In this document: piece after piece, positions 4,858-64,000 of the stretch
Layout: each line of letters begins with the position of its first letter
How positions within the stretch are numbered: the first letter of the stretch is position 1
Assembly (NCBI GenBank): GCA_038087875.1
Contig: CM075994.1
Coordinates: forward strand, 1,924,001-1,988,000
Length of the DNA stretch: 64,000 nucleotides
Direction: 5' to 3'
Origin: Malacoraja senta
Taxonomy: Eukaryota
Notes under the pieces: model-generated
The model's database searches: none
What the model was told of the DNA's origin: nothing
The model's input: the letters and a program-made list of their open reading frames with translations, nothing else
Position numbers and translations under genes: made by a program

Positions 4858-7338
4858 AGACGGGGTTTATCCCTAAGAGATACTCATCTAACAATATGAG
4901 ACGTCTACTCAACATAATGCATTCACACAAATCTGAAGATCAAGAATTATCAATTATTTCGCTGGATGCTGAAAAAGCATTTGATCAAGTAGAATGGAAT
5001 TATATGGACAAAGTATTACAAAAATTTCAACTGGGGGAGAATTTTATTCTATGGATCAAGTTACTATATAACAAACCTACAGCTAGAATACTAACTAATA
5101 ACATATTATCCTCGAAATTCCAACTATCAAGGGGAAATAGACAAGGATGCTCATTATCACCACAACTGTTTGCTCTCATTATTGAACCGCTAGCAGAAAA
5201 AATTAGAATACATCCTGATATCCATGGATATACTAAAGATTCATATAATAAAATATCTTTATACGCGGACGATATATTACTGTACATTACAAAACCTCAA
5301 ATCACTATACCAAATATATTAAATTTAATTGAAGATTTTGGATCTTTTTCTGGATATAGAATAAATTGGAATAAAAGTGAAATTATGTCAATAAAACCGA
5401 AAGATTCATCACATCTTTTAAAATTCCCTTTTAAAATAGCTACAGAAAAATTTAAATATTTGGGAATCGAAATTACCAGATCATATCAAGGTATGTTTAG
5501 GGCAAATTTTGACCCCTTACTTAATAAATTAAATACACTAATTAAATTTTGGAAAACGCTCCCGATGTCTTTAATAGGCCGAATAAACGCAATAAAAATT
5601 ATCTTTTTACCACAAATGTTATACCTATTTCAATCAATTCCTATATACTTACCAAAGAAGTTTTTTAAAAAACTCGACTCAGATATCACTAATTTTATAT
5701 GGGACTATAAATCACATAGAATACAAAAAACTCATCTGAATAAACCTAAAGTATTAGGGGGTTTATCACTACCTAATTTTATGTATTATTATTGGTCAGT
5801 AAATATTAAAAATATGATTCAACTGATGGATAACTCCGCCCAACAAGCGGACTGGATTGTAATGGAGAAAGAGGATTGCTCCTCTAGAAACATTGGAGCG
5901 ATCCTCCTCTCTCCAATGAAATTGAATAACATAAATTATAATAAGAACCCAATTATCCATAGTACAAAACAATCTGAATTTGGAAACAAATAAAACAAAA
6001 TTTAAAATTAAGAAATTTATCACTTTTATTACCTATAGTCAATAACCCTTTGTTTAATCCTTCTATTATAGATAAAGCTTATACACAATGGGATAGATTA
6101 GGAATTAAAACGCTTGGTGACTTGTATGAAACTGGAAAATTACTTTCATTTCAACAATTACAAATAAAATATAAACTCGGAAATAATCAATATTTTAAAT
6201 ATTTTCAAATATGCGACTATTTGAAAAAATATACAAAAGATCATCATAATAACCCAGCAGATGTACTGGACGAGGCAATGCAGATAAAAGCGGAATCAGC
6301 AAACTTAATATCATATTTGTATAATATTATCTTAAATGCACAAATACCACCTACGGAGGGTATCAGAAGAGACTGGGAACAAGAGTTAGCTATTAAAATT
6401 TCAAAGGAAAGTTGGAATGAATACTTATTAAATGTGCATAAATGCTCGATTAATGTAAGACACACTTTAATACAATTTAAAATTTTACATAGATTATATT
6501 AAACTAATAATTCTATGTAGTAAATTTTCCCAAATGTATCATCTATTTGTGATAAATGTCAATCCCAAGAAGCTACTATAACGCACTCATTCGTTTCTTG
6601 TACAAAAATTCAAAAATTTTGGAATGAAATTTTTGAAATCTTTACAAAGTTATTTAAAACAAGACTGATACCCAAAGCAGAATGGATTATCTTCGGTATA
6701 ACGGAAGATGGTCCAGAATTAAATGTGTTTCAAAAGAAACTAATGGACTATGGGTTAATAACTGGAAAAAAGCTAATTCTAAAATTTTGGAAGAAGGCTC
6801 CAATACCAACTATAAATATGTGGATTTCAAATATGTTTGAAACATTACACCTAGAAGAGATAAGAATCCTCCTAGCAGGTAAACCAGATCATTTCCACCT
6901 GACGTGGTCTGTATTTATAGAATTATTACAAACATAAGGTGCAAAAGTACTTTAAAAAAAAAAAAAAAAAATTGAGGTCAGGTAAGGGGGGATGATAGTT
7001 GAAGAGTTGGTATGTCCATTTTGCGTAATGCTCATAAAAATATTTGTTTCTCTCTTTTTCCTCTTTCTTTTTTTTCTAGGGTCTATTTCTTAACTCTTTT
7101 TCTTTTGTTTTTAATTTTGCTCTTATAGGGTCTTTGTCCTTTTTTGTTGTCACATTTCCTACACTTCCACTTTTTCCTTCACTTTCTTCTTTCTTTCAAT
7201 CTTTTCCTTTTCTAGTGTAAAAAATAAATGGAGTACATTAATTGTAAGAAGATATAAATGACAAGTACTAATGTATGTGGTTGTAATGTAATGTACTTCT
7301 AATAAAATACAAATTAAAAAAAAAAAATTAAAAAAAAA
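4858..7338 (+). mobile_element. L1-clade LINE: ORF2 (RT and C-terminal Cys region), 3'UTR and poly(A); 5' part lost in the gap
   Basis: LDAEKAFD, RGNRQGCSLSP, YADD, CDKC...HSFVSC; AATAAA then A-tail; frameshift near 5965 and disruption near 6500. Confidence 0.93.
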
Positions 7339-9449: not shown

Positions 9450-9780
9450 GGGCCTGTCCCACTTAGGCGATTTTTCAGCGGACTGCCGGCGACTGTCAAG
9501 TTGCCAGCAGTCGCCTGAAAAAACGGCAACTGGAACGGTGATTGTCAGAGTGGAACACACAAACACATTGCTTCCTTCACCAGCCCGTGTGAATTTTTTA
9601 GACAGCGGTCCCCCCGCTTGCCCTGTCTAAAAAATTCACACTGTGCAAAGCCAAGGTGATACAGACACATGCCGCGATGAACAGGGAGGTTGGCGCTGTA
9701 ATTAAGACGGCTAAAGCACAGTGTACAGTAAGTCCTTTAAAAGAGGGGGGGGGGAGAGGGGGGGGGGGGTGGGAGAAGAA
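9450..9780 (+). mobile_element. Left half of a PIF/Harbinger-like MITE, abutting an L1
   Basis: Begins GGGCCTGTCCCACTTAGGCGA, similar to the TIR at 19101. Shares internal CACAGTGTAC.GTAAGTCCTTTA and a G-run with that element. Confidence 0.55.
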
Positions 9781-11410
9781 ATCACATAGAATACAAAAAA
9801 CTCATCTGAATAAACCTAAAGTATTAGGGGGTTTAGCACTACCTAATTTTATGTATTATTATTGGTCAGTAAATATTAAAAATATGATTCAACTGATGGA
9901 TAACTCCGCCCAACAAGCGGACTGGATTGTAATGGAGAAAGAGGATTGCTCCTCTAGAAACATTGGAGCGATCCTCCTCTCTCCAATGAAATTGAATAAC
10001 ATAAATTATAATAAGAACCCAATTATCCATAGTACAATCCGAATTTGGAAACAAATAAAACAAAATTTAAAATTAAGAAATTTATCACTTTTATTACCTA
10101 TAGTCAATAACCCTTTGTTTAATCCTTCTATTATAGATAAAGCTTATACACAATGGGATAGATTAGGAATTAAAATGCTTGGTGACTTGTATGAAACTGG
10201 AAAATTACTTTCATTTCAACAATTACAAATAAAATATAAACTCGGAAATAATCAATATTTTAAATATTTTCAAATATGCGACTATTTGAAAAAATATACA
10301 AAAGATCATCATAATAACCCAGCAGATGTACTGGACGAGGCAATGCAGATAAAAGCGGAATCAGCAAACTTAATATCATATTTGTATAATACTATCTTAA
10401 ATGCACAAATACCATCTACGGAGGGTATCAGAAGAGACTGGGAACAAGAGTTAGCTATTAAAATTTCAAAGGAAAGTTGGAATGAATACTTATTAAATGT
10501 GCATAAATGCTCGATTAATGTAAGACACACTTTAATACAATTTAAAATTTTACATAGATTATATTATTCGAAAACTAAAATTCATAAAATTTTCCCAAAT
10601 GTATCATCTATTTGTGATAAATGTCAATCCCAAGAAGCTACTATAACGCACTCATTCGTTTCTTGTACAAAAATTCAAAAATTTTGGAATGAAATTTTTG
10701 AAATCTTTACAAAGTTATTTAAAACAAGACTGATACCCAAAGCAGAATGGATTATCTTCGGTATAACGGAAGATGGTCCAGAATTAAATGTGTTTCAAAA
10801 GAAACTAATGGACTATGGGTTAATAACTGGAAAAAAGCGAATTCTAAAATTTTGGAAGAAGGCTCCAATACCAACTATAAATATGTGGATTTCAAATATG
10901 TTTGAAACATTACACCTAGAAGAGATAAGACTCCTCCTAGCAGGTAAACCAGATCATTTCCACCTGACGTGGTCTGTATTTATAGAATTATTACAAACAT
11001 AAGGTGCAAAAGTACTTTAAAAAAAATAAAAAAAAAATTGAGGTCTGGTAAGGGGGGATGATAGTTGAAGAGTTGGTATGTCCATTTTGCGTAATGCTCA
11101 TAAAAATATTTGTTTCTCTCTTTTTCCTCTTTCTCTCTTTTTTTCCTAGGGTCTATTTCTTAACTCTTTTTCTTTTGTTTTTAATTTTGCTCTTATAGGG
11201 TCTTTGTCCTTTTTTGTTGTCACATTTCCTACACTTCCACTTTTTCCTTCACTTTCTTCTTTCTTTCAATCTTTTCCTTTTCTAGTGTAAAAAATAAATG
11301 GAGTACATTAATTGTAAGAAGATATAAATGACAAGTACTAATGTATGTGGTTGTAATGTAATGTACTTCTAATAAAATACAAATTTAAAAAAAAATAAAA
11401 AAAAATAAAA
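9781..11410 (+). mobile_element. 5'-truncated L1-clade LINE, near-identical to 5711-7338
   Basis: Uninterrupted ORF2 C-terminus to 11002, same 3'UTR and poly(A). Confidence 0.93.
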
Positions 11411-15668: not shown

Positions 15669-16539
15669 ATTAATGTGCTTTTGTAGAAACAAGGAACTGC
15701 AGATGCAGGTTTTCCAAGGAAAAAACACAAAATGCTGGAGTAACTCGGGTCAGGCAGCATCTGTGGAGAACAAGGATTGGTGACATTTCGGATGGGGACT
15801 CCAGTATGAAGGGTCCTGACCCAAAACAACCTAATCACCTATTCATGTTCTCACAGAATCCATTAACGTGCTGTTATTGGTTAAATCGCTTAAGTAGTGA
15901 TTTGCACAGATTGAATGCTGATCCTCGTATTTTATGAATCTCTCATCAATGTTTAACTCTTCATTGTAAAACACGGTCATTATGAAACATATAGAACAGG
16001 CCTACAGCCCTCAATGTTTGTGCTGAACATGAGTCCAAGTAAAATTATGTGATCCATATCCCTCCATCCCATGTGCCTATCTAAAAACTCTTAAACGCCA
16101 CAATTGTACCACCCTTGGCAGCACATTCGAGGCACGCACCACTCTGTGTACATAAACATGCCCTGCACATCGCCATTAAGTTTTGCCCCTCTCACCTTAA
16201 AGCTATGCCCGCTCGTCTTTGACATTTCCACCCCGGGGAAAAGGTTCTGACTGTCTACCCAATCTATGCCCCTGATAATTGTATACACCTGTACCACGTC
16301 TCCCCTCGGCCTATGACCGCCAAAGGAAACTATTTAAATTCGTGCAACCTCCCTGAGACCGAAACTTCACTGCCGGAATCCTACAAGAAGAAGAAGAAGA
16401 GACCGAAACCTTCTAATCCAGGCTTCCATTTCTGATAAACCTCCTCTGCACCCTTTCCAAAACCTCCACATCCTTCCTGCCTAATAAAAGTCTTATGACG
16501 TTGCAACGTGACTTGTTGACCCTTGGACATTTATCACCC

Positions 16540-16930
16540 TCCTCGTCCTTGTCTTCTGTTGCGCGGTGCTCCTCCGTGGAGACGCTTAGGCCGGGTAAAT
16601 GAAGGCCGGATGCATCATTCGTGATGGGAACCAATAGTGGGACGTGAGTGTGGCAGGGGCCCGGAGCGGGACCGGGGGACGGGAGAGAGCGACGCACACA
16701 TCGCACGGCAGCTTGGGAAGCGCTTGGAGCCGGAGAGCGGCGGCGGTGGTAGCTGGTAGCGGCGGTGGTAGCGGCGGCGGTAGCGGCGGTAGCGGCAGCG
16801 GCAGCGGCAGCGGCAGTCGGGGACTCGCCCGCCGGGCCATGGCGGACTACGGGGTTCCCAGATAGTCGGCGGATCCCTGTCCCCCGCTCCCCGGACACGG
16901 CAGCGCTATCCGCCGCATCACCTCCAGGTC
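16540..16930 (+). promoter_or_regulatory. DOP1A: CpG island; probable DOP1A promoter and non-coding first exon
   Basis: GC/CpG-rich stretch that does not resemble the repeats in the window. CCAAT at 16631, GACGTG nearby, (GGC/AGC) triplet run at ~16737-16816, weak possible donor CAG|GTCACT after 16927. The first coding exon has a splice acceptor upstream of its ATG, so an upstream exon is required. Confidence 0.65.
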
Positions 16931-18160
16931 ACTGCCGCTGGATGAGCATCAGGATACCGGGGTGTAAACGATCACCACGTACCCGCCTTCTGGATAAACT
17001 ACAGGGCACCCGTCCGTTGAATTCCTTGGTGCAAGTTGCCATTGGGTACCCGCTTTGTGGATTAATTACAGGCACCTGTTCATTGCATTAATTACAAGGT
17101 ATCTGTGTACAAGTTATCACCAGCTACCGTCATCTGGATTAACTACAGGGCACTTGCCCATTGCAATAACTACAAGATACCTGGGTGCAAACTGTCACCA
17201 CATACCGTCGTCTAGATTAAGTACGGGGCACCTGTCCATTCCATTAACTGCAGGGTACCAGTGTACACGTTATCATCAGTGACCATCTTCTGGATTAACC
17301 ATAGAGTATCATTGGATGAACTACCAGAATAACCCTGTACAAATTATCACCAGGCTCCATCCACTGGATGAACTACGAGATAACTGCATACAAAATATCA
17401 CCATATACTGGCTACTGCATTAATCATAGGTTACCTGTGATAAGATTATCGACTTGCAATGAGGCTTGAGGTGATAGCAGGCAACATCAGGGTAGTGGCA
17501 GGTAAGTGCTGACTGGTGTCAGAGGCACCCCTCCAGTCTAATGTTCACCATGACAATGTTTCACTACGTAGTTCAATGATACATTGTCATATGTACTGAT
17601 GTACAGTGAAATTCTCTTTTTGCATATTGTTCACCATATACTGTGTACTGGATTAACCACAGATTAACTGTGGTAGATTATCAACTGGTATCATCCACTA
17701 GATTAACTATAGGGTACCTGTGTACAAGATTATTACCAGGTATAATTTATTGGGTGAACTACAGATCACCTGTGTAGGAGATTATCACCAGGTACTGATA
17801 ACTGAATCCATTGATAACTGCTAATCACCAGGTTATCAATGGATTAACCACAGGATACCTGCCTATAAGATTATCACAGGAAACATCAAATGGATTAACA
17901 ATAGGATATTTGTCCTTGAGATTTTCTCCAGGTATTATTCATTGGATTACTACTAGGTAATGAATTACTGTCAATTACCTGTCCATCAGGTTATCTACAG
18001 GATTCCTGTCGATTGGTTTATCATCAGGTCGTTCACTGAATTATTGCAGGGTGCTGCGCACTGAATTATCACCATGTACTATCCACTGGATTAGTTCTGG
18101 ATTGTTACATCCACTACATTACAACTGGTTCGCTGTGAACTGGTTTATTGCCGGGTCGTT
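16930..18160. repeat. Degenerate ~50-bp minisatellite (approximate consensus GGATTAACTACAGGGTACCTGTGTACAAGATTATCACCAGGTACCATCCACT)
   Basis: Recurring GGATTAAC/TTATCACC motifs at roughly 50-nt spacing, decaying toward the 3' end. Confidence 0.75.
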
Positions 18161-24948: not shown

Positions 24949-25062
24949 AATGTGCACTTTAACCACATGTAATTTTTTCTATTACAAATCTCAAATTGTG
25001 GAGTACAGAGGCAAATAAATAAATGATTGGTCTTTGTCCCAAACATTATGGAGGGCACTTTA
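24949..25062. mobile_element. Isolated Tc1 TIR fragment
   Basis: Matches the right TIR at ~39473-39586. Confidence 0.8.
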
Positions 25063-25518
25063 TACACAGTGGAGCAGCACTGCTTGTTGATACGGTTAGG
25101 AGAATGTGGAACTTTAACAGAAAAAGTTTTCTGGCAATCTGGCTGAACCCACCATCTTCTGCCTCCTTTAGATTTAGGGTTGAGTTTATTATTGTCAGAT
25201 GTTCTGAGCTACAGTGAAAAGCTTTTTTCTTTGCGTATCATCCAAGTAGATCAGATATATCATACATAGATACAATCAGTTCAAACTCCTACTCCTTTAG
25301 TTTAGTTTATCGATACAGCACAGAAACAGGCCCCTCTGCCCACCGAGTCTGTGTTGACCAGCGATCCCCGTACACTAGCACTATCCTACACACTAGGGAC
25401 AATTTTACTCGTCAATTAACCTATAAACGTGTACGTGTTTGGAATGTGGGTGGAAATTGGAGCACCCAGAGAATACCCACGCGGTCATGGGAAGAACATA
25501 CAAACTACGTACAAAGAG

Positions 25519-26184
25519 TGTAAAGAATCTATAACGAGGCATCGTTACTTTACTATCTTTATTCATACTGGAGCATTACATATTGCACTAGCTGTACGTG
25601 GTCTGTCACAGGAACTAGAGAGCGATCTGTGGGTGGGGAGGTTGTACTTATACTTGTGATATGGGGAGTGGTTAGTAGGTATGAGGTCACTATGTTAAAG
25701 GCACATGCATATCTCATCTACATCCTTCCCCTCCGAATCGACAGGCAAATACAATGGTGACAGGGCGACCACGGCTCATGCGCTAGGATGGTTAAACAAA
25801 ATCGCCATGGCGGACAGGCGGTTTGACAAGACGTCCCGACCGGGTTCGCGTCTCGCCATCCTCCCTTCCGGCAGGAGGAAGAAGCACTGATGGGGACAGA
25901 CGAACCTGAAAGGGGGAAACGGGAGGAGACGGAGGAGACCGCGGCACCAGGCGTGGGTTCGAATCCCACTTCTGACACCATGTAAAGAATCTATAACGAG
26001 GCATCGTTACTTTACTATCTTTATTCATACTGGAGCATTACATATTGCACTAGCTGTACGTGGTCTGTCACAGGAACTAGAGAGCGATCTGTGGGTGGGG
26101 AGGTTGTACTTGTACTTGTGATATGGGGAGTGGTTAGTAGGTATGAGGTCACTATGTTAAAGGCACATGCATATCTCATCTACA
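25519..26184 (-). mobile_element. TRIM-like miniature LTR retrotransposon: LTRs 25519-25722 and 25981-26184, 258-bp internal region
   Basis: Two 204-bp TG...CA repeats; 5-bp TSD AAGAG (25514-18 and 26185-89); PBS TGGTGTCAGAAGTGGGAT next to one LTR; PPT AGGGGAAGGA next to the other; inserted in a SINE. Confidence 0.93.
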
Positions 26185-27210
26185 AAGAGCACCCGTCGTC
26201 AGGATTGAATCCGGGTCTCTGGCGCTGTAAGGCAGCAATTCTACTGCTGCGCCACTGTGACGCCCTCTCCTGCTTCTCCGACAAGAAGCCAGCTGTTATG
26301 AAAGGCCTGGATAGAGTGGATGTGGAGTGGATGTTTACACTAGTGGTAGAGTCTAGGACCAGAGGGCACAGCATAAAAGAACGGAGCATTAAATAGGAGA
26401 TGAGGAGGAATTTCTTTAGCCAGGTGGTGGTGAATCTGTGGAATTCATTGCCACAGGCCGCTGTGGAGGCCAAGCCATATTTTTACAGCAGAGATTGACA
26501 GATTCTTGATTATCATGGGTGTCATGGGTTTATGGGGAGAAGGCAGGAAAATGGGGTTGAAAGGGAAAGATAGATCAGCACTATTGAAAGGCGGAGTAGA
26601 CTTGATGGGCTGAATGGTCTAATTTTGCTCCTTTGACGAACTTATGAGGCAGAGAGTTTGTCTTTGTTTTTGGATGATCGGTACCCTCCAGTGTCCTGTT
26701 TTACAATCTAATAATTAGGCAAAAGAGACATGGATTTATCTCTGATAGCTTGGATCATACACTGGCTTGGCGATTGAACTGCAGGCTTTCACTGATTAGT
26801 TTTGTATTATGTTTGATCTGGAAGCCTTTTCTCGTCTACTTTGGCGTTGTGCTATGTTGTTTGCAATGCTGCAACTTTTATTTCCAGTGTAGACCTCACG
26901 ACAGAATTTCAAAACTGAAAAAGAAAGACTTGCATTTTGAAAAGTACCTCTCATGAATTCAGGACATCCCAAAGCACTTTTTCAGCCAACGAATCGCTAG
27001 TCAAATGCAGCAACGCAGCTGCAGCATAGGAAAATGCAGCAACATTGAGAAATGCAACAACATAGGGAAATGCAGCAGCACTGCTGTAAGATAGGGAAAT
27101 GCAACAGCCAATTTGCACTCCTAAAGGAACCATAAATATCACCAGATGGTGAGCTGGCAAAAGCTGGAGTAACTCAGCGGGACAGGCAGCATCTCTGGAG
27201 AGAAGGAATG

Positions 27211-41624: not shown

Positions 41625-41762
41625 ATGAACACGGAGGAACTGGAGCTACTGGGCGACTCTAAATACAGAAACTACATAGCAGCAGTGGATAAAGCGTTGA
41701 AAAGCTTTGAGTATTCTAGTGAATGGGCAGATTTAATATCAGCACTGGGTAAACTTAACAAG
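41625..41762 (+). CDS. DOP1A: DOP1A first coding exon, [46 protein letters not shown] (exon probably starts at 41574)
   Basis: Translation matches the vertebrate Dopey-1 N-terminus from memory. Acceptor ttccag at 41573, donor AAG|gtaagc. Confidence 0.96.
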
Positions 41763-46468: not shown

Positions 46469-46650
46469 GTTTTACAGAACAATGCAAAGTACCAAGTGGT
46501 CCCAAAGAAGCTAACTATTGGCAAGCGCTTGGCCCAGTGTCTTCACCCAGCTCTGCCCAGTGGTGTTCACCGAAAAGCTCTGGAGACCTACGAGATCATT
46601 TTCAAAATCATCGGCTCTAAAAGACTGGCCAAAGATCTCTTCTTGTACAG
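46469..46650 (+). CDS. DOP1A: DOP1A coding exon 2 ([41 protein letters not shown]...)
   Basis: Dopey_N signature [19 protein letters not shown]; 182 nt; tgcag| and |gtgtgc; phase consistent with neighbours. Confidence 0.97.
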
Positions 46651-48768: not shown

Positions 48769-50104
48769 TATCCTTTAAATATTGTTATAGTACCTGCCTT
48801 AACTGCCTCCTCTGGCAGCTCGTTCTATGTAGCCTATACCCTTCGTGTGAACATGTTGAATATCACACTGCCGACCTTAGATTTTGCACAAGTTCGTCTT
48901 TAGACGGTCCCTTAGGATCAATGATGCTGTGCTTTCATCAAAGAAGTAAGTAAAACAAGATGACATGAAGTTAAGACAAGAGGGAAAATATTTGGGGGAT
49001 TACAGCAGGCATCCTTTCTCACCCAGAGTGTGGTGAGTACCTGGATTGCACTACCTGAGAGAGTGGTTGAAATTGGGCCACTGACAGCTTTTAAGAATAC
49101 TCTGGAATGGCGCATGAAGCACTTAGGCATATGAAGATATGGGCCAAGTGCTGGGAGATGGTATTAGAATGGCTATGTGCCCACTGGTTAGAATAGATAT
49201 GATGGGCCGAATGACCTGTTTCCATGCTGTACGTCCCTGTGGTTCAGAGCTGGTTAAGGAGGCAGATGTGGGAGTTGCAGAAAGGGTAATCAGTGGTCGG
49301 TGTGAACTCAGTGGGCTAATGGGCCTATATCAAGGCTGAATCTTTCAGTCAGTTCAATCTATGGAAAGCCCATTGTGTTCATTGATGTCCTTAAGGGAAA
49401 GGAACTTTGATTGTGTCCCATTCTAATTTGGACATGATTCTAGTGGCACCCAGTGTGACTGGTGGTTCAAGTCATTCATTTTTTTTTTTTAAGTTCCTTT
49501 ACTGCCTTAGGTCCATCAGGTGAAAGCCATGGATAGGATGTTTTCACTAGTGGGAGAGTCTAGGACTAGAGGCCATAGCCTCAGAATAAAAGGATGTACC
49601 TTTAGAAAGGAGATGAGGATGAATTTCTTTAACCAGAGGGTGGTGAATCTGTGGAATTCATTGCCACAGACGGCTGTGGAGGCCATGTCAATGGATATTT
49701 TTAAGGTGGAGATTGACAGATTCTTGATTAGTAAGGGTGTCGGGGGTTATGGGGAGAAGGCAGGGTTATGGGGTTGAGAGGAAAAGATCTGCCATGATTG
49801 AATGGCGGAGTAGACTTGATGGGCCGAATGGCCTAATTTTGCTCCTATAACTTATGAAAGTGCAGGAGGAACTCAACGGGTCAGGCATCATCTGTGAAAG
49901 GAATGGACAGGTGATGATTCGGGTCAGGATCCTTCTCGGATTGATCAGTCCCAACGAGTGTCTCTCTGGTGGCGTGTCTCTTTGCTCAAGACAAGATTCC
50001 AGTTTCTTGCGTCTTATCCGGTGAGAGTTGGTGCATTCAGGAGAGATGGGGAGAATGATTTGTAACATCCTTAATAATTGGAATTTATTTTACTCTCTCC
50101 TCAG

Positions 50105-50275
50105 TTCTGGCCTTTTCCCACTTCTTGGCAACGCGGCAATGTCTGTTAAACCCGCGCTTCTGAGTTTATATGAAGTCTACTTCCTGCCACTGGGCAAAAC
50201 TCTGAAGCCAGGATTACAGGGACTGTTGACTGGGACATTACCAGGCCTGGAAGAAGGATCTGAATACTATGACAG
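50105..50275 (+). CDS. DOP1A: DOP1A coding exon 3 ([19 protein letters not shown]...[13 protein letters not shown])
   Basis: Dopey_N motif LPGLEEGSE; 171 nt, phase 2-2; ctcag| and |gtgagg. Confidence 0.97.
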
Positions 50276-52067
50276 GTGAGGATTTGTGAGCTGAGTATTT
50301 ATCGAGTCACGAGTATTTGATTGTCATGTGTACCGAAAATGGAACAATGAAACTCTTATTTGCAGCAACATGACAAGACTATAAACTTTACAGATACAGC
50401 ATGGAAGCAGGCCCTTCGGCCTACCGAGTCCATGCCGACCAGCGATCACCCTGTACACTAGCACTATACTACACACTAGGGACAAATTACAATTTACAGA
50501 AGCCAATTAGTTTTGAGATACAGCGTGGAAACGGGGCCTTCAGCCCACTGAGTCCATGCCGACCACCGATCACCTGCACACTAGTTTTATCCTATACACC
50601 AGGGACAATTTACAGAAGCCAATTAACCTACAAACCTGTACGTCTTTGAAGTGTGAGAGGAAACCAGAGCACCTGGAGAAAACCCATGGGGGTCACAGGA
50701 GTGAACATGCTATCTTCTTATAGACGGCACCCGTATACTGGATCATACCCGGGTTTCTGACGCTGTAAGATGGCAACTCTTCTGCTGTGCCACCTGTAAA
50801 CACGATAGATAGCAACCAAAGACAGTCCATAGCTTAGTTAGTGTTGTGTGGTGTTCAAGAGCTTGTTGGTTGTTTGGCACATATTTTAAAATATCACAGA
50901 CCCGTATATCATTAGATCATTTAAGCATCATCTAGTAACCATAGTCTATCATTGATTGCTGTTGAAGGACTCTTTTATAATATTCTCTTTTGGTCAGCTG
51001 TACGTTCATCTGGAAACAATCCCCCAGCTGTGTGTCCTCGCTCTTAAAATTGCATACTGCCCAGACTTAAATGCATTATTGTCCTATGCTGATCCCTGGG
51101 TGCTAATCCTGGAGCATTCTAACCAACCACACTGTGGGAAGGTCTTCATCAGATGAACGCAGTGAAACACCTTGTCAGGTACAATCAGGGACTGGTGATA
51201 AATATTTGTTTTCCCCGCATCATCCACACTATGAATTAATAAATAATAGGTACCCCTCCCATTGCTTTGAGGAGAAACATCATATGCTGCTTTTGATCTC
51301 TGTTGCCGCAATCTCCAACGTTCAAAACGAAGTTGTAGGTGCAGCATTTTTTAACATCTTTTAGAATTTAGAGATACAGCGCGGAAACAGGCCCTTCAGT
51401 GGTCCACACCGACCAGTGATCCCTGTACACTAGCACTATCCTACACACTAGGAACAATTTATAGAAGCCAATTAACCTACAAACCTGTACGTTTTTTGGA
51501 GTGTGGGAGGAAGCAGGAGCAGCCGGGAAAACCCGCGCGGCCACAGGGAGAACATACAAACTCCATGCAGGCAGCACCTGTAGTCAGGATCGAACCCGAG
51601 TCTTTAGTGCTGATATAGAGCTCTACCGCTACGCCACTGTGCCGCCCCACACCATTAGTGTATTTAAAAATTTTTGTTTGAGAACTGGAGTCTCCTCAAA
51701 TGTATGCCTTTGAACTGCTGTTTATACCCAACGATGTGATGGTTTGCTGGTGACATACAGCAAAGATTGAGCAGGTTAGGGCTCCTTTTATATAAAATAC
51801 TTGCAAGTTATTGCTGCCTCTGGCTGCAAGTTGTGAATAATGTTCCTAGAAATAAGACAAGACTAAATGGTTTGACTACCTAGATAAATGAAATTGCCGG
51901 AAAGGAGCACTGATGAATGTTAAAACAAAAGTCTCGAGCCGAAACGTCACCCCTCCTTTTTCACCAGAGATGGTGCCTGACCCGCTGAGTTGCTCCAGCA
52001 CTTTGTGTCTATCACTGATGAATGCCCTGTGTCTTACAATGATTAAATTGTCTTTCTTTATACACAG

Positions 52068-52257
52068 GGCTAACTCATTGCTGGAGAAGGTAGCGGCTGC
52101 CGTGGAACAGTCTGCATTTTATGGTGCACTTTGGGGGAGTATTCTGACCAGTCCTGCTGTACGGTTGCCTGGAATCACCTTTGTGCTTTCTCATCTGAAC
52201 CGGAAACTTTCGATGGAAGACCAACTCTATATCATTGGTAGCGATATTGAACTGATG
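52068..52257 (+). CDS. DOP1A: DOP1A coding exon 4 (ANSLLEKVAAAVEQSAFYGALWGSILTSPAVRLPG...SDIELM)
   Basis: 190 nt; acacag| and |gtactg; frame continuous. Confidence 0.96.
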
Positions 52258-52962
52258 GTACTGAGAATTTTGTTACCATGTAGACCACTTTTTTTTTAAT
52301 CCATGTCATCGTGAAGTGAATTAAATCTAAAAGTCGATGTAAGATTAATTTGCTTCTTTTGGGTGAACACATGTATTTTGAGTGATTTTGGTTAAAACTT
52401 GGGTCATAAAGTCTTTTCAAATACTTGAGTATCCTCCTTTGATTGGGATGGTATGGCCCGTTTCCATGCTCCATGTTCCTAGTGTTCTAATATATTACAC
52501 TTTTGTGTGACCGGATGCAATCTGAAGAGACTGTTCCCCTCCTTGTATCCCTTTTGTTCTCACACCTTCCCCAGCTAACAATGGGCCATAATCGGCTTCA
52601 CCATTTCCTGAGGTCATCTGTTGCCGGCCCTGATTTGTTCTGCTCTTTTCTCACCTCCAATTCCACACCCGCCGCCATTCCAAGTCTGATCTTTCAGTCT
52701 GAAGAAAAGTTCCGACCCAAAACATCACCTATTCCATTTCTCCAGAGATGCTGCCTGACCCGCTTAGTCCGCCTGGACTCGGCGGGCCGAAGGACCTGTT
52801 TCCAAGCTGTTTGTCTAAAGTCTAAATTAAAGTAACGGACAAACATCGAGACAAACTGCATAAGGGTGCTGAATAAACAATCATAATTGATTTTGAATCC
52901 AGAGTAGTTTTAAGTTTTCTTGATTTGAACAACGTTGCTATTTTTCTTGTTCATTCTGGTAG

Positions 52963-58323: not shown

Positions 58324-58435
58324 GCCATGGTAGGAATCTTGCAAGGAAAGGATGCGGAGAGGAAGAACGTAATACCGTCACATGATCTGAAACCCTTTCG
58401 TATACTTATCAGTCTCCTCGACAAGCCAGAACTAG
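58324..58435 (+). CDS. DOP1A: DOP1A coding exon 8 (AMVGILQ...DLKPFRILISLLDKPELG)
   Basis: Conserved KPFRILISLLDKPELG; 112 nt; tttag| and |gtattg. Confidence 0.95.
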
Positions 58436-58547
58436 GTATTGTATTGTGGACTGGAATAACTTCCTAAGTATAAGTAAATGGGAGGGAGGGGAGGGGAGGG
58501 GAGGGTGGTCAGGGTTAAAAAGTAGATGTCTGCATGCCAGGCTTTTG

Positions 58548-58718
58548 ACATGGTTCTGTGTGGTAGGTTGGTCCGGAAGGTACATGGTTCTGTGTGGTAG
58601 GTTGGTCCGGAAGGTACATGGTTCTGTGTGGTAGGTTGGTCCGGAAGGTACATGGTTCTGTGTGGTAGGTTGGTCCGGAAGGTACACGGTTTCTGTGTGG
58701 TAGGTTGGTCCGGAAGGT
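58548..58718. repeat. 34-bp minisatellite, 5 copies (ACATGGTTCTGTGTGGTAGGTTGGTCCGGAAGGT)
   Basis: Direct reading; embedded in CR1-like RT sequence. Confidence 0.93.
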
Positions 58719-58794
58719 TAGGTTACATGCGATCCAGGGTGTGCTAGCCAATTGGATACAAAATTGGCTTAGAAGGAGAAAGAGGGGGTAATGA

Positions 58795-61282
58795 CAGGGT
58801 TCGAAATTAGAGGTTGCCCGGGTGCCATTGACCACAGAAAGTGCCCCCGGGCAACCTAAACGGCGACTCATTTTGCCCGGCTTGGCACCCAAATACTGGT
58901 TTATACCGATAGACGCAAAAAACTGGAGTAACACCGCGGGTCAGGCAGCATCTCCAGCGAATAGGGACTGACGTTTCCGGTCGGCGGCTGTATTCCTCTA
59001 GTATCTTTGATTGCGGGGCAAAGATACTAGGTGCGTGGTGACGAAGGGTCGGGGCGAATGACGGGCCCCGAACAGCGGCACAGCGGCCGCGACAATGGCT
59101 CCACCGCCTCCTCCTCCCGCACCCCGCCCGCGGGAAGGAGGCTCCCCCTCCCCCCCCCTCCCCCCCTCCCCCCCTCCTCCCCTCCTCCCCTCCTCCCAGC
59201 CTCAGCGTGCGGGAAGGGGGTGTTTTGAAAGCACCTTTTGCGGATTTGCCATCAGCGGCTCCTATCGCCCTGATAACGGTCGCTGCTTGCAACTCCGCTA
59301 ACGGCGCTTTCAAACCAACCTCTCTCGCACGCCGAGGCCAGGAGGAGGGAGGGAGGGAGGGAGAGGGAGGTCTCCTTCCGCCGTCTGAAGCAGCTGCACC
59401 AAAGATCCTGCAGCTATCGGATCTTTGAGCTGCACCGCTCGGCCCCGCACCTTCCTGTCGGAGGCGGTGGCGAGGAGGCGGCGGCACTTTGGCGTTGGAC
59501 AGGGACGGCCAAGGCAGCGGGGCGATGTGTCCGAGGAGCGCTGACCTTTCTCCTCCCCACCTCCTCTGCCCCTTCCCCCCCCCCTCTCTCTCTCTCTCTC
59601 TCTTGTACGCCCTCTCCACCCCTCTTATCCTGGGACCCCTCCTCTCCATCCCGCACTGATTCCCATTCCCTCCTCTATTCAGTCCTCACTGACATCCCTG
59701 TGCTCCCCTCCCCATCTACCCCCCCCCCAATCTATCATCACCCTACCCACCTCACATTGATTCTCCTGCCACCCCCATCCATCCTACACTGGTCCCCCAA
59801 TTCATCCTGTACTGACCCCCCTTCCCATCCATCCTGCACTTCTCCCCCCCCATTCATACTGCACTGATCCTCCCATTCATCCCGTACTGACCCACCCTCC
59901 ATTTACCCTGCACCAATCCCCCCATCCATCCTGTAGTGATCTCCCCATTCATCTTTTACCGATCCCCCATTCATCCTGTACTGATCCCCTCATTCATCCT
60001 GTAGTGATCCCCCATTCATCCTGCATAGACCCTCCGATCCACACTGTCCTGACCCCCCCCCCCCATCCATCCCATACTGATCCCCCCCATTCAACACCAC
60101 TGACATCCCCCGTGCTCTCCCCTCACAATTTTACATACTCCAACCAACACGTACTAATTCACCTGTCTCAATCCATCCATTCCGCACCGATTGCCTTCTC
60201 AACCCCCCCCCCCCCCCCCGCCATCTATCCAGCCCGCACTGACTCACACACCCCCTGACCCTATTGTGCTTCATGGTCTTCAGAGCGAACATTGATTATG
60301 TTTGATAACGGAATGTAATCAAATGTGTTTTAATTCCCAATGTTATTATTTGTTTTGACACCTTTAAACATATTACCAAAAGAACATTTGCTGCAGTTAT
60401 GTCCTTTGGCCATCTCTTGTCAGTTAGTGTAATGTTTAACCTGTCAGATGGGTATAGTTGGTTTTAACAGCTATTATCATAAAATGCTTTAGAAATTTCC
60501 TTGCGACCTGTATATTTTGTTATGGATAAATTATGTGGGAAGCCAGAGTGTTTCTGTGCCAATAGCAATAACGACCTATGCTATGGCCATTAATAAAGTA
60601 AAAATCAATCAAATCAATCAATCATGGTAATTATCGGTCCTTCACAGAAAACATGCTTGCATCAATGTGTAGTGTGTATGGTTAAGCATATATGTTACCA
60701 TGGTCCAGGATTTATTGATGCTGAATAATCCAACCACATTTTTGTTTGGAAGTGGAAAGAACTAATAGGAATTGCATTAATTGAATGTGTAAAAAGAGTT
60801 GAGATATTGTATTATAATTTTGCTGCATGTCATTGTGGTATATATCATGCCTTGATTGGTGAATATGTTTAGTTTGTGAGTTATTTGAAGCAGAAATAAT
60901 ATGTGAATGTAGACAAAAGTGCTATGGAGCGAAGGAAATAGGCAATGTTTCGGGCCAAAACTCTTCTTTCAGACTGATGGGTTTCGGCCTGAAACGTTGC
61001 CTATTTCCTTCGCTCCATAGATGCTGCTGCACCCGCTGAGTTTCTCCAGCACTTTTGTCTACCTTCGATTTTCCCAGCATCTGCAGTTCCTTCTTGAACA
61101 TAATATGTGAATGCTTCATTGAGCATAATTCCGACTGGTAACTACGCACTTCGTCCGAGCACATTATCGCACGCGTCATGCAAAACCGTCTTCAATGACC
61201 ACCTAAACTGTCATTTGGCAACCTAAAAAGCTGTCAAGGTTGCCCGGCTGGCAACAGGGAAAAAAGTTAAGCGAGTGCCCTG
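58795..61282. mobile_element. hAT-like non-autonomous transposon
   Basis: CAGGG...CCCTG termini with imperfect TIRs; subterminal GGTTGCC/GGCAACC repeats at both ends; AATGA repeated at both flanks (not a full 8-bp TSD). Confidence 0.55.
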
Positions 61283-61294
61283 AATGAAGGGTTG

Positions 61295-61494
61295 NNNNNN
61301 NNNNNNNNNNNNNNNNNNNNNNNNNNNNNNNNNNNNNNNNNNNNNNNNNNNNNNNNNNNNNNNNNNNNNNNNNNNNNNNNNNNNNNNNNNNNNNNNNNNN
61401 NNNNNNNNNNNNNNNNNNNNNNNNNNNNNNNNNNNNNNNNNNNNNNNNNNNNNNNNNNNNNNNNNNNNNNNNNNNNNNNNNNNNNNNNNNNNNN
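61295..61494. other. Assembly gap (200 N)
   Basis: N run. Confidence 1.
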
Positions 61495-64000
61495 GGGTTC
61501 TCGGCCTGAAACGTTGCCTAATTTCCTTCGCCTCCATAAGATGCCTGCTGCAACCGCCTGAGTTTCTCCAGCCACTTTTTGTTCTATCCTTCGATTTTCC
61601 AGCATCTGCAAGTTCCTTCTTGAACATAATATGTGAATGCTTCATTGAGCATAATTCTGACTGGTAACTACGCACTTCGTCCGAGCACATTATCGCACGC
61701 GTCATGCAAACCGTCTTCAATGACCACCTAAACTGTCATTTGGCAACCTAAAAAGCTGTCAAGGTTGCCCGGCTGGCAACAGGGAAAAAAGTTAAGCGAG
61801 TGCCCTGAATGAAGGGTTGATTGATTGACCTGTAACCAGTTGTGTACCACAGGGATCGGGTGCTGGGTCCTCACTTTTGTTTGTCCCATAGATGGGTTAA
61901 CATATGATGAGCGTTGATGGCACTGGGCATGTACTGGTGGAGTTTAGAAGGATGAGGGAGGAACCTCATTGAACTTATCAAATAGGGATTGAATGTGGAG
62001 AGGATGTTTCCACTACTGGGAGAGACTAGGATCCAGCAGAAAGAGCGCCACTTAGAAAGAGATGAGGAGGATTTTTGTAGTCAGAGGGTGGTGAATCTGT
62101 GGAATTCTTGACCACAGACAGCTGTTGAGACCAAGTCAATGGATATTTTTAAGGCAGAGATTGACAGATTCTAGATTAGGAGCAGGCCCATTATCCTTTA
62201 TCCATCGTTACTTTTTTTACATATTTGTTCTATACCTCTCAACATCACTGTCTATATCTCTCATTTCCCTTTCCCTGACTCTCAGTCTGAAGAAGGGTCT
62301 CAGCCTTTTTCTCCAAAGACGTTGTCTGACCCACTGAGTTACTCCAGCTTTCTGTCTCTATCTTCGGTCTAAACCAGCATCTGCAGTTCCTTCCACACCG
62401 AGATAGAGGTGGTTACAAGTAGACAGTTCCCTGACAGTACTAACATAGGTGTACAAGCTGGTGAAGAAGGCATATGGCACACATTGCCTTCATCAGACAA
62501 GCTTTTAAGTACAAGAGTTGGGACGTCCTGATGGAGTTGTACAAAACTTCGGGAAGACCACACCTGGAGTATTGTGCAGAGTTCTGGTCGCCAGTCTGTA
62601 TGGAGGATGTGATTAACTTAGCGAAGGTGCAGAAAAGATTCACAAGGACGTTGCTGGGACTGAAAGCTATAAGTGCAGACTTCAGAGGCTGGGCGCAGTT
62701 TTCCCTGAAATGAAGGAGGCTGAGGGGTGATGTTATAGAGGTTTATAAAATCATGAGTGGTATAGATAGTGGAATGAAGCCACTGCTAATACTAAGACAT
62801 TTGGATGGTTCATGGATAGAAAAAGTTTAGGGGGATATGGCTAAACACGGGCATATGGGACCAGTGTAGATGGGGTGTCTTGGTTGGCAGGTTAGTTAGT
62901 CACCAGGGCCTGTTTTTTTTAAGTTTAGTTTAGTTTATTGTCATGTGTACTGAGGTACAATGAAAAGCTTTAATGCCGTGCTAACCAGTCAGCAGAAAAT
63001 ACTCTATATCTGTATGAATCTACAGATATATGACACTGTATGACCACTTTATAATAGTTATTTGACAAAGTGAAATAGTGGCTTGAAGTGATTTTGGCCA
63101 TGGCCTTATTCTGTACCTTAGTAAGTTCTCAAGCAACCCAAACAAAATCAGGAATTCAGCATGGATTAATCATTGCTGACCTACATTCTTGCTCTATGGT
63201 AATGCATTAACTTAACGTAACGTCCTGCTGCTTGCATTGTTGAGAGAACGCAATGCTGCTTGGTTCAATTGACTCCATACCAGTTGGGAATTCATCAAGG
63301 GCCTACACCACGCAAGCAATGCTCCCATTTCACTCTTGCCAAAGGGAAGAAGTTATAGGAGTCTGAAAACTGCTGCAATTCAGCACGAGACCCAGGTTCA
63401 ATCCTGACTACGGGGTGCTGTCTGTAAGGAGTTTGTTCATTCTTCTTGTGTCCACGTACATTTTCTCCAGGTGCTCAAGTTTCCTTCCACATCCCAATGA
63501 CGTAAATTGTCCCAAGGATGTAAGATAGAACTAATGTATGTGATCATTAGTCAGCGTGGATTGGGTGGCCAAAGCACCCATTTCCACCCTGTACTTTTAA
63601 ACTAAACTAAACTACTGAACATGACAAACTCTGAAAAATGAACTGCCTGGGTTGCACCAAGGACTTTGTTTTGTTTTTGTACTATATTGGCTTTTTATGT
63701 ATTGTACTTTATTTGTTTGGTTATTATATTATTTATTGAGTAAGGGCGGCACAGTGGCACAGCGGTAGAGTTGCTGCCTCACAGCGCCAGAGACCCGGGT
63801 TTAATCCTACTGCAGGTGCTGTCTGTACAGAGTTTGTACGTTCACCCTGTGACCATGTAAGTTTTCTCCAGGTGCTCCGGTTTCCTTCCACATTCCAAAG
63901 ACGTACAGGTTTGTAGATGGATTGGCTTTGGGAAAAAATTGTAAATTGTCCCTAGTGTTAGTGTACGGGGTGATCGCTGGTCAGCATGGACTTGGTGGGT

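Follow-up and report, generated by a model that had tools for sequence, protein, structure and literature searches.

A 666-nt Gypsy remnant upstream of the Dopey coding exons in a skate genome carries tRNA-Leu(CAA) sequence at its deletion junction

Our analysis suggests, with moderate confidence, that the short LTR element at positions 25519-26184 of the window (the whole 64,000-nt stretch of Malacoraja senta DNA that was analysed) represents a defective copy within a Ty3/Gypsy family that is Mag-like and abundant: it was probably produced by one faulty reverse transcription, was then integrated normally, and would exist in this short form as a single or rare copy. Its anatomy, a tail of integrase in its interior, a 32-nt tRNA match that ends at the deletion junction and a clean insertion into a SINE are read directly from the DNA; the read-through of the primer tRNA, the mis-transfer and the absence of later amplification are what we infer from them, and the mechanism is reconstructed from one copy.

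The element occupies the minus strand, is 666 nt long with an interior of 258 nt, and presents its parts in the proper minus-strand order: 5' LTR (25981-26184), primer-binding site (PBS, 25963-25980), interior, polypurine tract (PPT, 25723-25734) and 3' LTR (25519-25722). Both LTRs are 204 nt long, have the form TG...CA and differ at one letter, at LTR position 132 (25650 A / 26112 G), as had been noticed in the first-pass annotation, whose reading of a perfect 5-nt target site duplication (TSD) and of a PBS and a PPT in the correct order within a 258-nt interior was confirmed as well. The 5' LTR harbors AATAAA at offset 160 in the sense of the element. The PPT is 12 nt long and adjoins the 3' LTR, and the joint between the two is also present in contigs of three of the sequencing runs discussed below (X1, X2 and X3). 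A second copy of the LTR or of the interior was not found in the 64-kb window.

The target of the insertion was a SINE. The body of this SINE lies to the left of the element (25300-25513 with the left end approximate, 70-87% alike to many copies in the window, minus strand with the orientation judged by eye) and its tRNA-like head to the right (26190-26266 with the right end approximate, minus strand, 75-88% alike to many copies, with A- and B-box-like motifs seen by eye), while the element is bordered directly by the two copies of AAGAG at 25514-25518 and 26185-26189. Nine other SINE copies in the window reach the insertion point, and seven of them rejoin across it with offset 0 and contain the 5-mer once; therefore, the duplication is not due to chance, and the target site is established independently of the element. 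The A/B-box-like head (26202-26260, minus strand) points into the 5' LTR, and by eye a distance of 12 nt separates its B-box-like motif from the target duplication. Transcripts made by Pol III from the SINE could enter the element, where a run of four T near the integrase stop, also noted by eye, would be in their way.

The interior, which had been described as non-coding, turned out to contain the end of an integrase gene. On the minus strand, one frame remains open between the PBS and a stop at 25794-25792, and the bases 25947-25792 of this strand encode the C-terminal 51 residues of a Gypsy integrase together with its stop. The whole feature, identified by protein match, extends over 25792-25948, the last position being also the end of the sequence shared with the family, and 157 of the 258 interior nucleotides, about 60%, belong to it. 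Between the stop and the PPT lies the 3' untranslated remainder of the parent element (25735-25791, minus strand), which gives a distance of 69 nt from the stop to the LTR. The tail is proline-rich and ends in a TRSGR-type motif; the catalytic core of the integrase is absent and only the 51 terminal codons are left. When the 52-residue tail was compared with longer proteins, one match was obtained among 56 candidates, the protein P0001 (E 6.8e-5 in 5.8 billion), in which 20 of 25 residues at the extreme C-terminus are identical to the tail. P0001 is a pol fragment with the Gypsy order of domains: RNase H (46-176), integrase zinc-binding domain and integrase core (285-444). Its 120 listed relatives are Gypsy pol proteins, which add the RT, and a similar tail motif occurs within the last 60 residues in 51 of them; among those listed, the tail is matched best by P0001 and by a protein of the little skate, with 55% identity in both cases. 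This skate match and the type of the SINE point to a cartilaginous fish as the probable host. Judged from these protein matches, the element derives from a Ty3/Gypsy pol with the order RT-RNase H-integrase. The tail alone had no match among 1.84 billion 50%-cluster representatives and falls into no Pfam family, which is unsurprising for a short proline-rich piece, and the search for longer relatives of the C-terminal part of the skate protein found none.

The junction at the other end of the remnant is marked by tRNA sequence. The first 32 letters of the interior (25980-25949) match the antisense probe of tRNA-Leu(CAA) at 32 of 32 positions, the complement of CCA included, and the 33rd letter differs; the reference for this comparison is the probe from a mouse study (PMC7997516), not the host's own gene. 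The match of 18 nt given in the first-pass annotation is thus too short. The PBS proper, located by the same probe match, accounts for 18 nt (25963-25980), and the extra 14 nt of tRNA-Leu(CAA) complement (25949-25962, minus strand) lie exactly at the deletion junction, with a chance of matching of 4e-9; they are probably a read-through copy of the primer. A PBS normally measures 18 nt: plus-strand synthesis halts before m1A58, the strong-stop site, as described in PMC8599865. The same limit is seen in 103 related loci, which were found via alignment of 25 pol proteins, the metagenome scan covering the best 80 of 538: 17 primer sites are of the Leu type, with no more than 3 mismatches over the 18 positions, and in all of them the match has ended by 18 nt, while 1-6 of the next 14 letters match. 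The relatives in this control have about 30-55% protein identity, are partly redundant and come from other hosts. Inspection by eye of the 12 letters available revealed no microhomology at the junction. The tRNA pattern was present in 0 viral contigs. The junction pattern was absent both from the viral contigs and from the contigs of prokaryote genomes that were searched, as is expected for such collections.

The parent family was traced in sequencing runs, of which four out of the 24 listed were compared, all contigs, with positions 25723-26500; the list contained no RNA run, which carries no information about expression. Both runs of organism A (X1 and X2) contain many variant contigs over the LTR and the tail, reaching 46 and 51 at a single LTR site, and therefore the family is highly repeated, the summed contig depths in X1 and X2 not being copy numbers. 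The contigs also point to several sequence variants within the family. Since 94 nt of the right flank are present in X1 without a difference, organism A is either this species or one very close to it. Near the junction, four contigs of X2 agree with the tail as far as 25948 and are unlike the tRNA copy from there on, and one contig of X2 (depth 6), on which the 18-nt PBS of the family rests, comprises the LTR and the PBS down to 25963, exactly 18 nt, and then 31 unlike letters. One contig of X1 matches 25858-25938 and continues with 66 unlike letters on the junction side. On this evidence, other copies of the family have a different construction to the left and to the right of the junction, which would be expected of longer parents. 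The junction 25948/25949 itself was spanned by none of 32 out of 133,858 pieces and 24 out of 1,103 loose ends, a result which does not amount to absence. At 25809 the letter of the element has no depth in X1 or X2, and at 26112 it has almost none, in contigs that drop rare variants; the interior has more such no-depth sites than the LTRs, though not significantly so (p 0.13). In the run of organism B (X3), compared over 25723-26140, the LTR shows 5 differences in 160 nt, and the region of the integrase tail 8 in 199 nt and 13 in 189 nt. Therefore, the family is common to more than one species. The run of organism C (X4) contains the right flank with 7 differences in 139 nt, and 9 of its 18 element bins have no depth, such holes proving nothing.

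The size of the loss can be estimated from full-length relatives. An LTR pair followed by the start of a PBS is present in 16 related loci, five of which have a readable TSD, in every case of 5 nt, and the elements with a readable TSD measure 4562-4728 nt. The interiors of 10 chosen relatives are 4037-4436 nt long, and therefore about 4 kb is missing from the element studied here. Seven of these 10 distant relatives possess a single ORF of 1315-1409 aa, and their distance from stop to LTR is 89-281 nt, compared with 69 nt in the element. DNA matches to the LTR or the interior in the 103 loci were limited to the PBS area and one 30-nt match. Full-length Gypsy elements with TG...CA ends, a Leu-type PBS and a 5-nt TSD were also seen in contigs of prokaryote MAGs (L085-L101) and of a viral collection (L001, L002), and loci of this kind include L078, L085, L086, L092 and L095; most likely, they are eukaryotic host DNA in these collections.

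The link to Mag-type Gypsy elements, proposed earlier from the Leu-type PBS and the 5-nt TSD, is retained in an indirect form. Several of the pol relatives are named K02A2.6-like, and these proteins we take to be Mag-like. The Leu PBS, Leu and Ser being the types known from Mag, the 5-nt TSD and an LTR of about 200 nt, within the range of 150-300 nt, agree with Mag, though they are not unique to it, and membership in the Mag lineage is suggested by these indirect features. A Mag element would further be expected to have a single gag-pol ORF within 4-5 kb, and the observation that bears on this comes from the seven distant relatives with one ORF. The Mag elements of mosquito (PMC3286476) and the Mag1 and Mag2 elements of pufferfish (PMC11117352) are reported to have the same Leu PBS, a 5-nt TSD and LTRs near 200 nt, the pufferfish LTRs being 208-211 nt long in comparison with 204 nt here. 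Contrastingly, about 4 kb is missing from our element, and the RT, by which it could be placed in a tree, is absent.

The following course of events would account for these features. A full-length RNA of about 4.6 kb would have been primed by tRNA-Leu(CAA), and plus-strand strong-stop synthesis would have passed m1A58 and copied 14 further nucleotides of the primer. The overlong end, unable to pair past the PBS, may then have taken up synthesis again at a minus-strand site some 150 nt short of the integrase stop, a jump that would have skipped about 4 kb, namely the 5' UTR, gag, protease, RT, RNase H and most of integrase. Finally, integrase from the same particle would have inserted the DNA, leading to the intact LTRs and the 5-nt duplication. 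Since the element encodes nothing and the whole leader after the PBS is gone, it is most likely a single or rare copy, and a dead one.

A comparable error, delayed second-strand transfer, has been described for HIV-1: the RT continues into the tRNA, and the subsequent transfer leads to a site further downstream. The account in PMC12657518 comprises one sequence of its own and 43 GenBank matches, whose deletion junctions are defined by 7-54 nt of inserted tRNA. The defective HIV-1 proviruses of that report likewise have intact LTRs and a PBS with primer-tRNA sequence at the junction (14 nt here). The hallmark of this type of transfer, primer-tRNA sequence that continues past the 18-nt PBS and abuts the junction while the LTRs are intact, is found in our element. 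In contrast to HIV-1, it is carried here by a Ty3/Gypsy retrotransposon in an assembled host genome, and the primer is tRNA-Leu(CAA). The claim of read-through is tempered by two considerations: minus-strand switches are far commoner and give rise to more of the internal deletions in HIV than any other process (334 sequences, 84.6%; PMC12657518), and read-through products are expected mostly to fail integration (PMC8599865). In the titles and abstract beginnings that were surveyed, with most subscription papers and Repbase/Dfam lying outside this scope, read-through was reported for HIV, with no report for Gypsy elements or for the origin of TRIMs; titles and abstract beginnings likewise contained no matching report on non-autonomous LTR elements of cartilaginous fish.

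The TRIM architecture ascribed to the element in the first-pass annotation holds with respect to size and layout: the element is shorter than 1 kb (666 nt), has two 204-nt LTRs (the range for TRIMs being about 100-250 nt) with a PBS and a PPT between them, and encodes no protein for its own mobilisation. It does not hold with respect to an interior free of coding sequence, as the integrase tail is located there. The TRIMs reported from plants, ants, cestodes and bivalves and the Helenus elements of fish (PMC10886601, PMC6934838) are likewise shorter than 1 kb, with LTRs of 100-250 nt, a PBS, a PPT and no working protein, and with the Helenus families already reported from fish, vertebrate TRIMs are not new (PMC10886601). 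The element differs from them in that its interior is a recognisable integrase remnant and that it is known from a single copy in the window. It also differs from Helenus, in which the tRNA is a promoter in the LTR, whereas the tRNA piece here is antisense, internal and outside the LTR. The Helenus or TRIMp3 type, with a tRNA- or 5S-derived Pol III promoter in the LTR, was rejected: Rfam gave no match in 25000-26700, and ARAGORN found no tRNA gene in the window.

One could argue that the same birth was followed by amplification in trans by the Mag-like parent, so that the element would belong to a young vertebrate TRIM family in which the 32-nt PBS is the scar of the founder. An element below 1 kb that has kept both LTRs, the PBS and the PPT retains the cis elements that TRIMs use (PMC10886601), and coding remnants can be retained in non-autonomous families of plants (43 of 115; PMC13570524). 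Moreover, the many copies of the parent family in organism A make helper elements plausible. However, the listed family contigs that reach the junction region go on with other letters, a second copy was not seen in 64 kb, which is a weak argument, and the leader after the PBS has been lost. Packaging signals usually sit in this leader. We regard such amplification as unlikely. The trans-mobilised TRIM family proposed in the first-pass annotation is not borne out: what fills the interior is largely left over from the integrase gene of the parent, the family contigs of two runs are arranged otherwise, and the evidence leans towards a one-off deletion, the very case which that annotation had named against itself.

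Another explanation places the 32-nt match in the parent: a subfamily may possess a native PBS of this length, right behind which an ordinary minus-strand template switch or a later DNA deletion made the cut. Minus-strand switches are, as cited, the predominant source of HIV deletions (84.6%; PMC12657518), and the sequence variants within the family make an unseen subfamily possible. However, the break would have to coincide with the last letter of the tRNA match and leave zero leader bases, the match is extended in 0 of 17 relatives, and the one informative family contig ends at 18 nt, which together make this explanation quite improbable. The size, the LTR length and the PBS/PPT order would also fit the definition of a classical TRIM, in which a short and unrelated interior codes for nothing (PMC6934838, PMC10886601). 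This reading is largely refuted by the integrase match over 157 of the 258 nt, while the fold of the interior is not unusual (z 0.66), and we give it hardly any weight. An assembly collapse of a full-length element, conceivable in a highly repetitive family and in a window with N gaps elsewhere (400 N), is equally hard to credit, as it would not add 14 nt of tRNA sequence absent from the family, and the two LTRs, the TSD and both parts of the SINE line up without any shift.

The origins of TRIMs from full elements are mostly obscure, the breakpoints being erased: in sugar beet, 61 of 115 non-autonomous families are reported as having no traceable partner or consistent breakpoint signal (PMC13570524). 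In the present element the breakpoint is readable, and its signature points to a specific error, primer-tRNA read-through. It would be a clear example that a TRIM-sized element can arise in one step, and the signature of a tRNA-tagged junction is easy to scan for genome-wide. If the element is a one-off copy, as we favour, its biological importance is small. If a TRIM family were true instead, the element would directly document how a TRIM is born, and tRNA-tagged junctions would be predicted in other young non-autonomous LTR families.

As regards age, the LTRs have diverged by 0.49% (1/204; 95% interval 0.01-2.7%). Assuming a shark-like rate, that reported for the epaulette shark (7e-10 per site per generation, PMC10587355), a hand calculation gives an age of about 3.5 million generations, with a range of 0.09-20 million, and the single mismatch could date from the insertion itself. 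The description of the element as young therefore stands as far as little divergence is concerned (1/204), and the element is not necessarily active now.

Four coding exons of Dopey_N lie in order on the plus strand, at 41625-41762, at 46469-46648 and within 50025-50276 and 51892-52296, and the first of them, at 41625, begins about 15.4 kb past the right end of the element. A CpG island at 16401-17200 may be a candidate promoter with a non-coding first exon; given such an exon, it is plausible that the element is located in intron 1 of the host gene, which we take to be DOP1A rather than DOP1B. The element is antisense to the Dopey gene and upstream of its first coding exon, and AATAAA is present only in the element's own sense. 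Since the element is antisense and its poly(A) signal is on the other strand, it is not predicted to affect the host gene. No exon of a neighbouring gene came to light when 48 minus-strand frames upstream were scanned with Pfam.

Several other repeats were noticed in the window. Two nearly identical 3' pieces of a LINE lie on the plus strand at about 4870-6940 and 9700-11000, the first with an RT domain, and they reflect either a recent LINE family or a local duplication. At 60922-61735, similar sequence flanks an N gap, as seen in the ORF translations, which is possibly an assembly duplication. A minisatellite is located at about 58400-58720.
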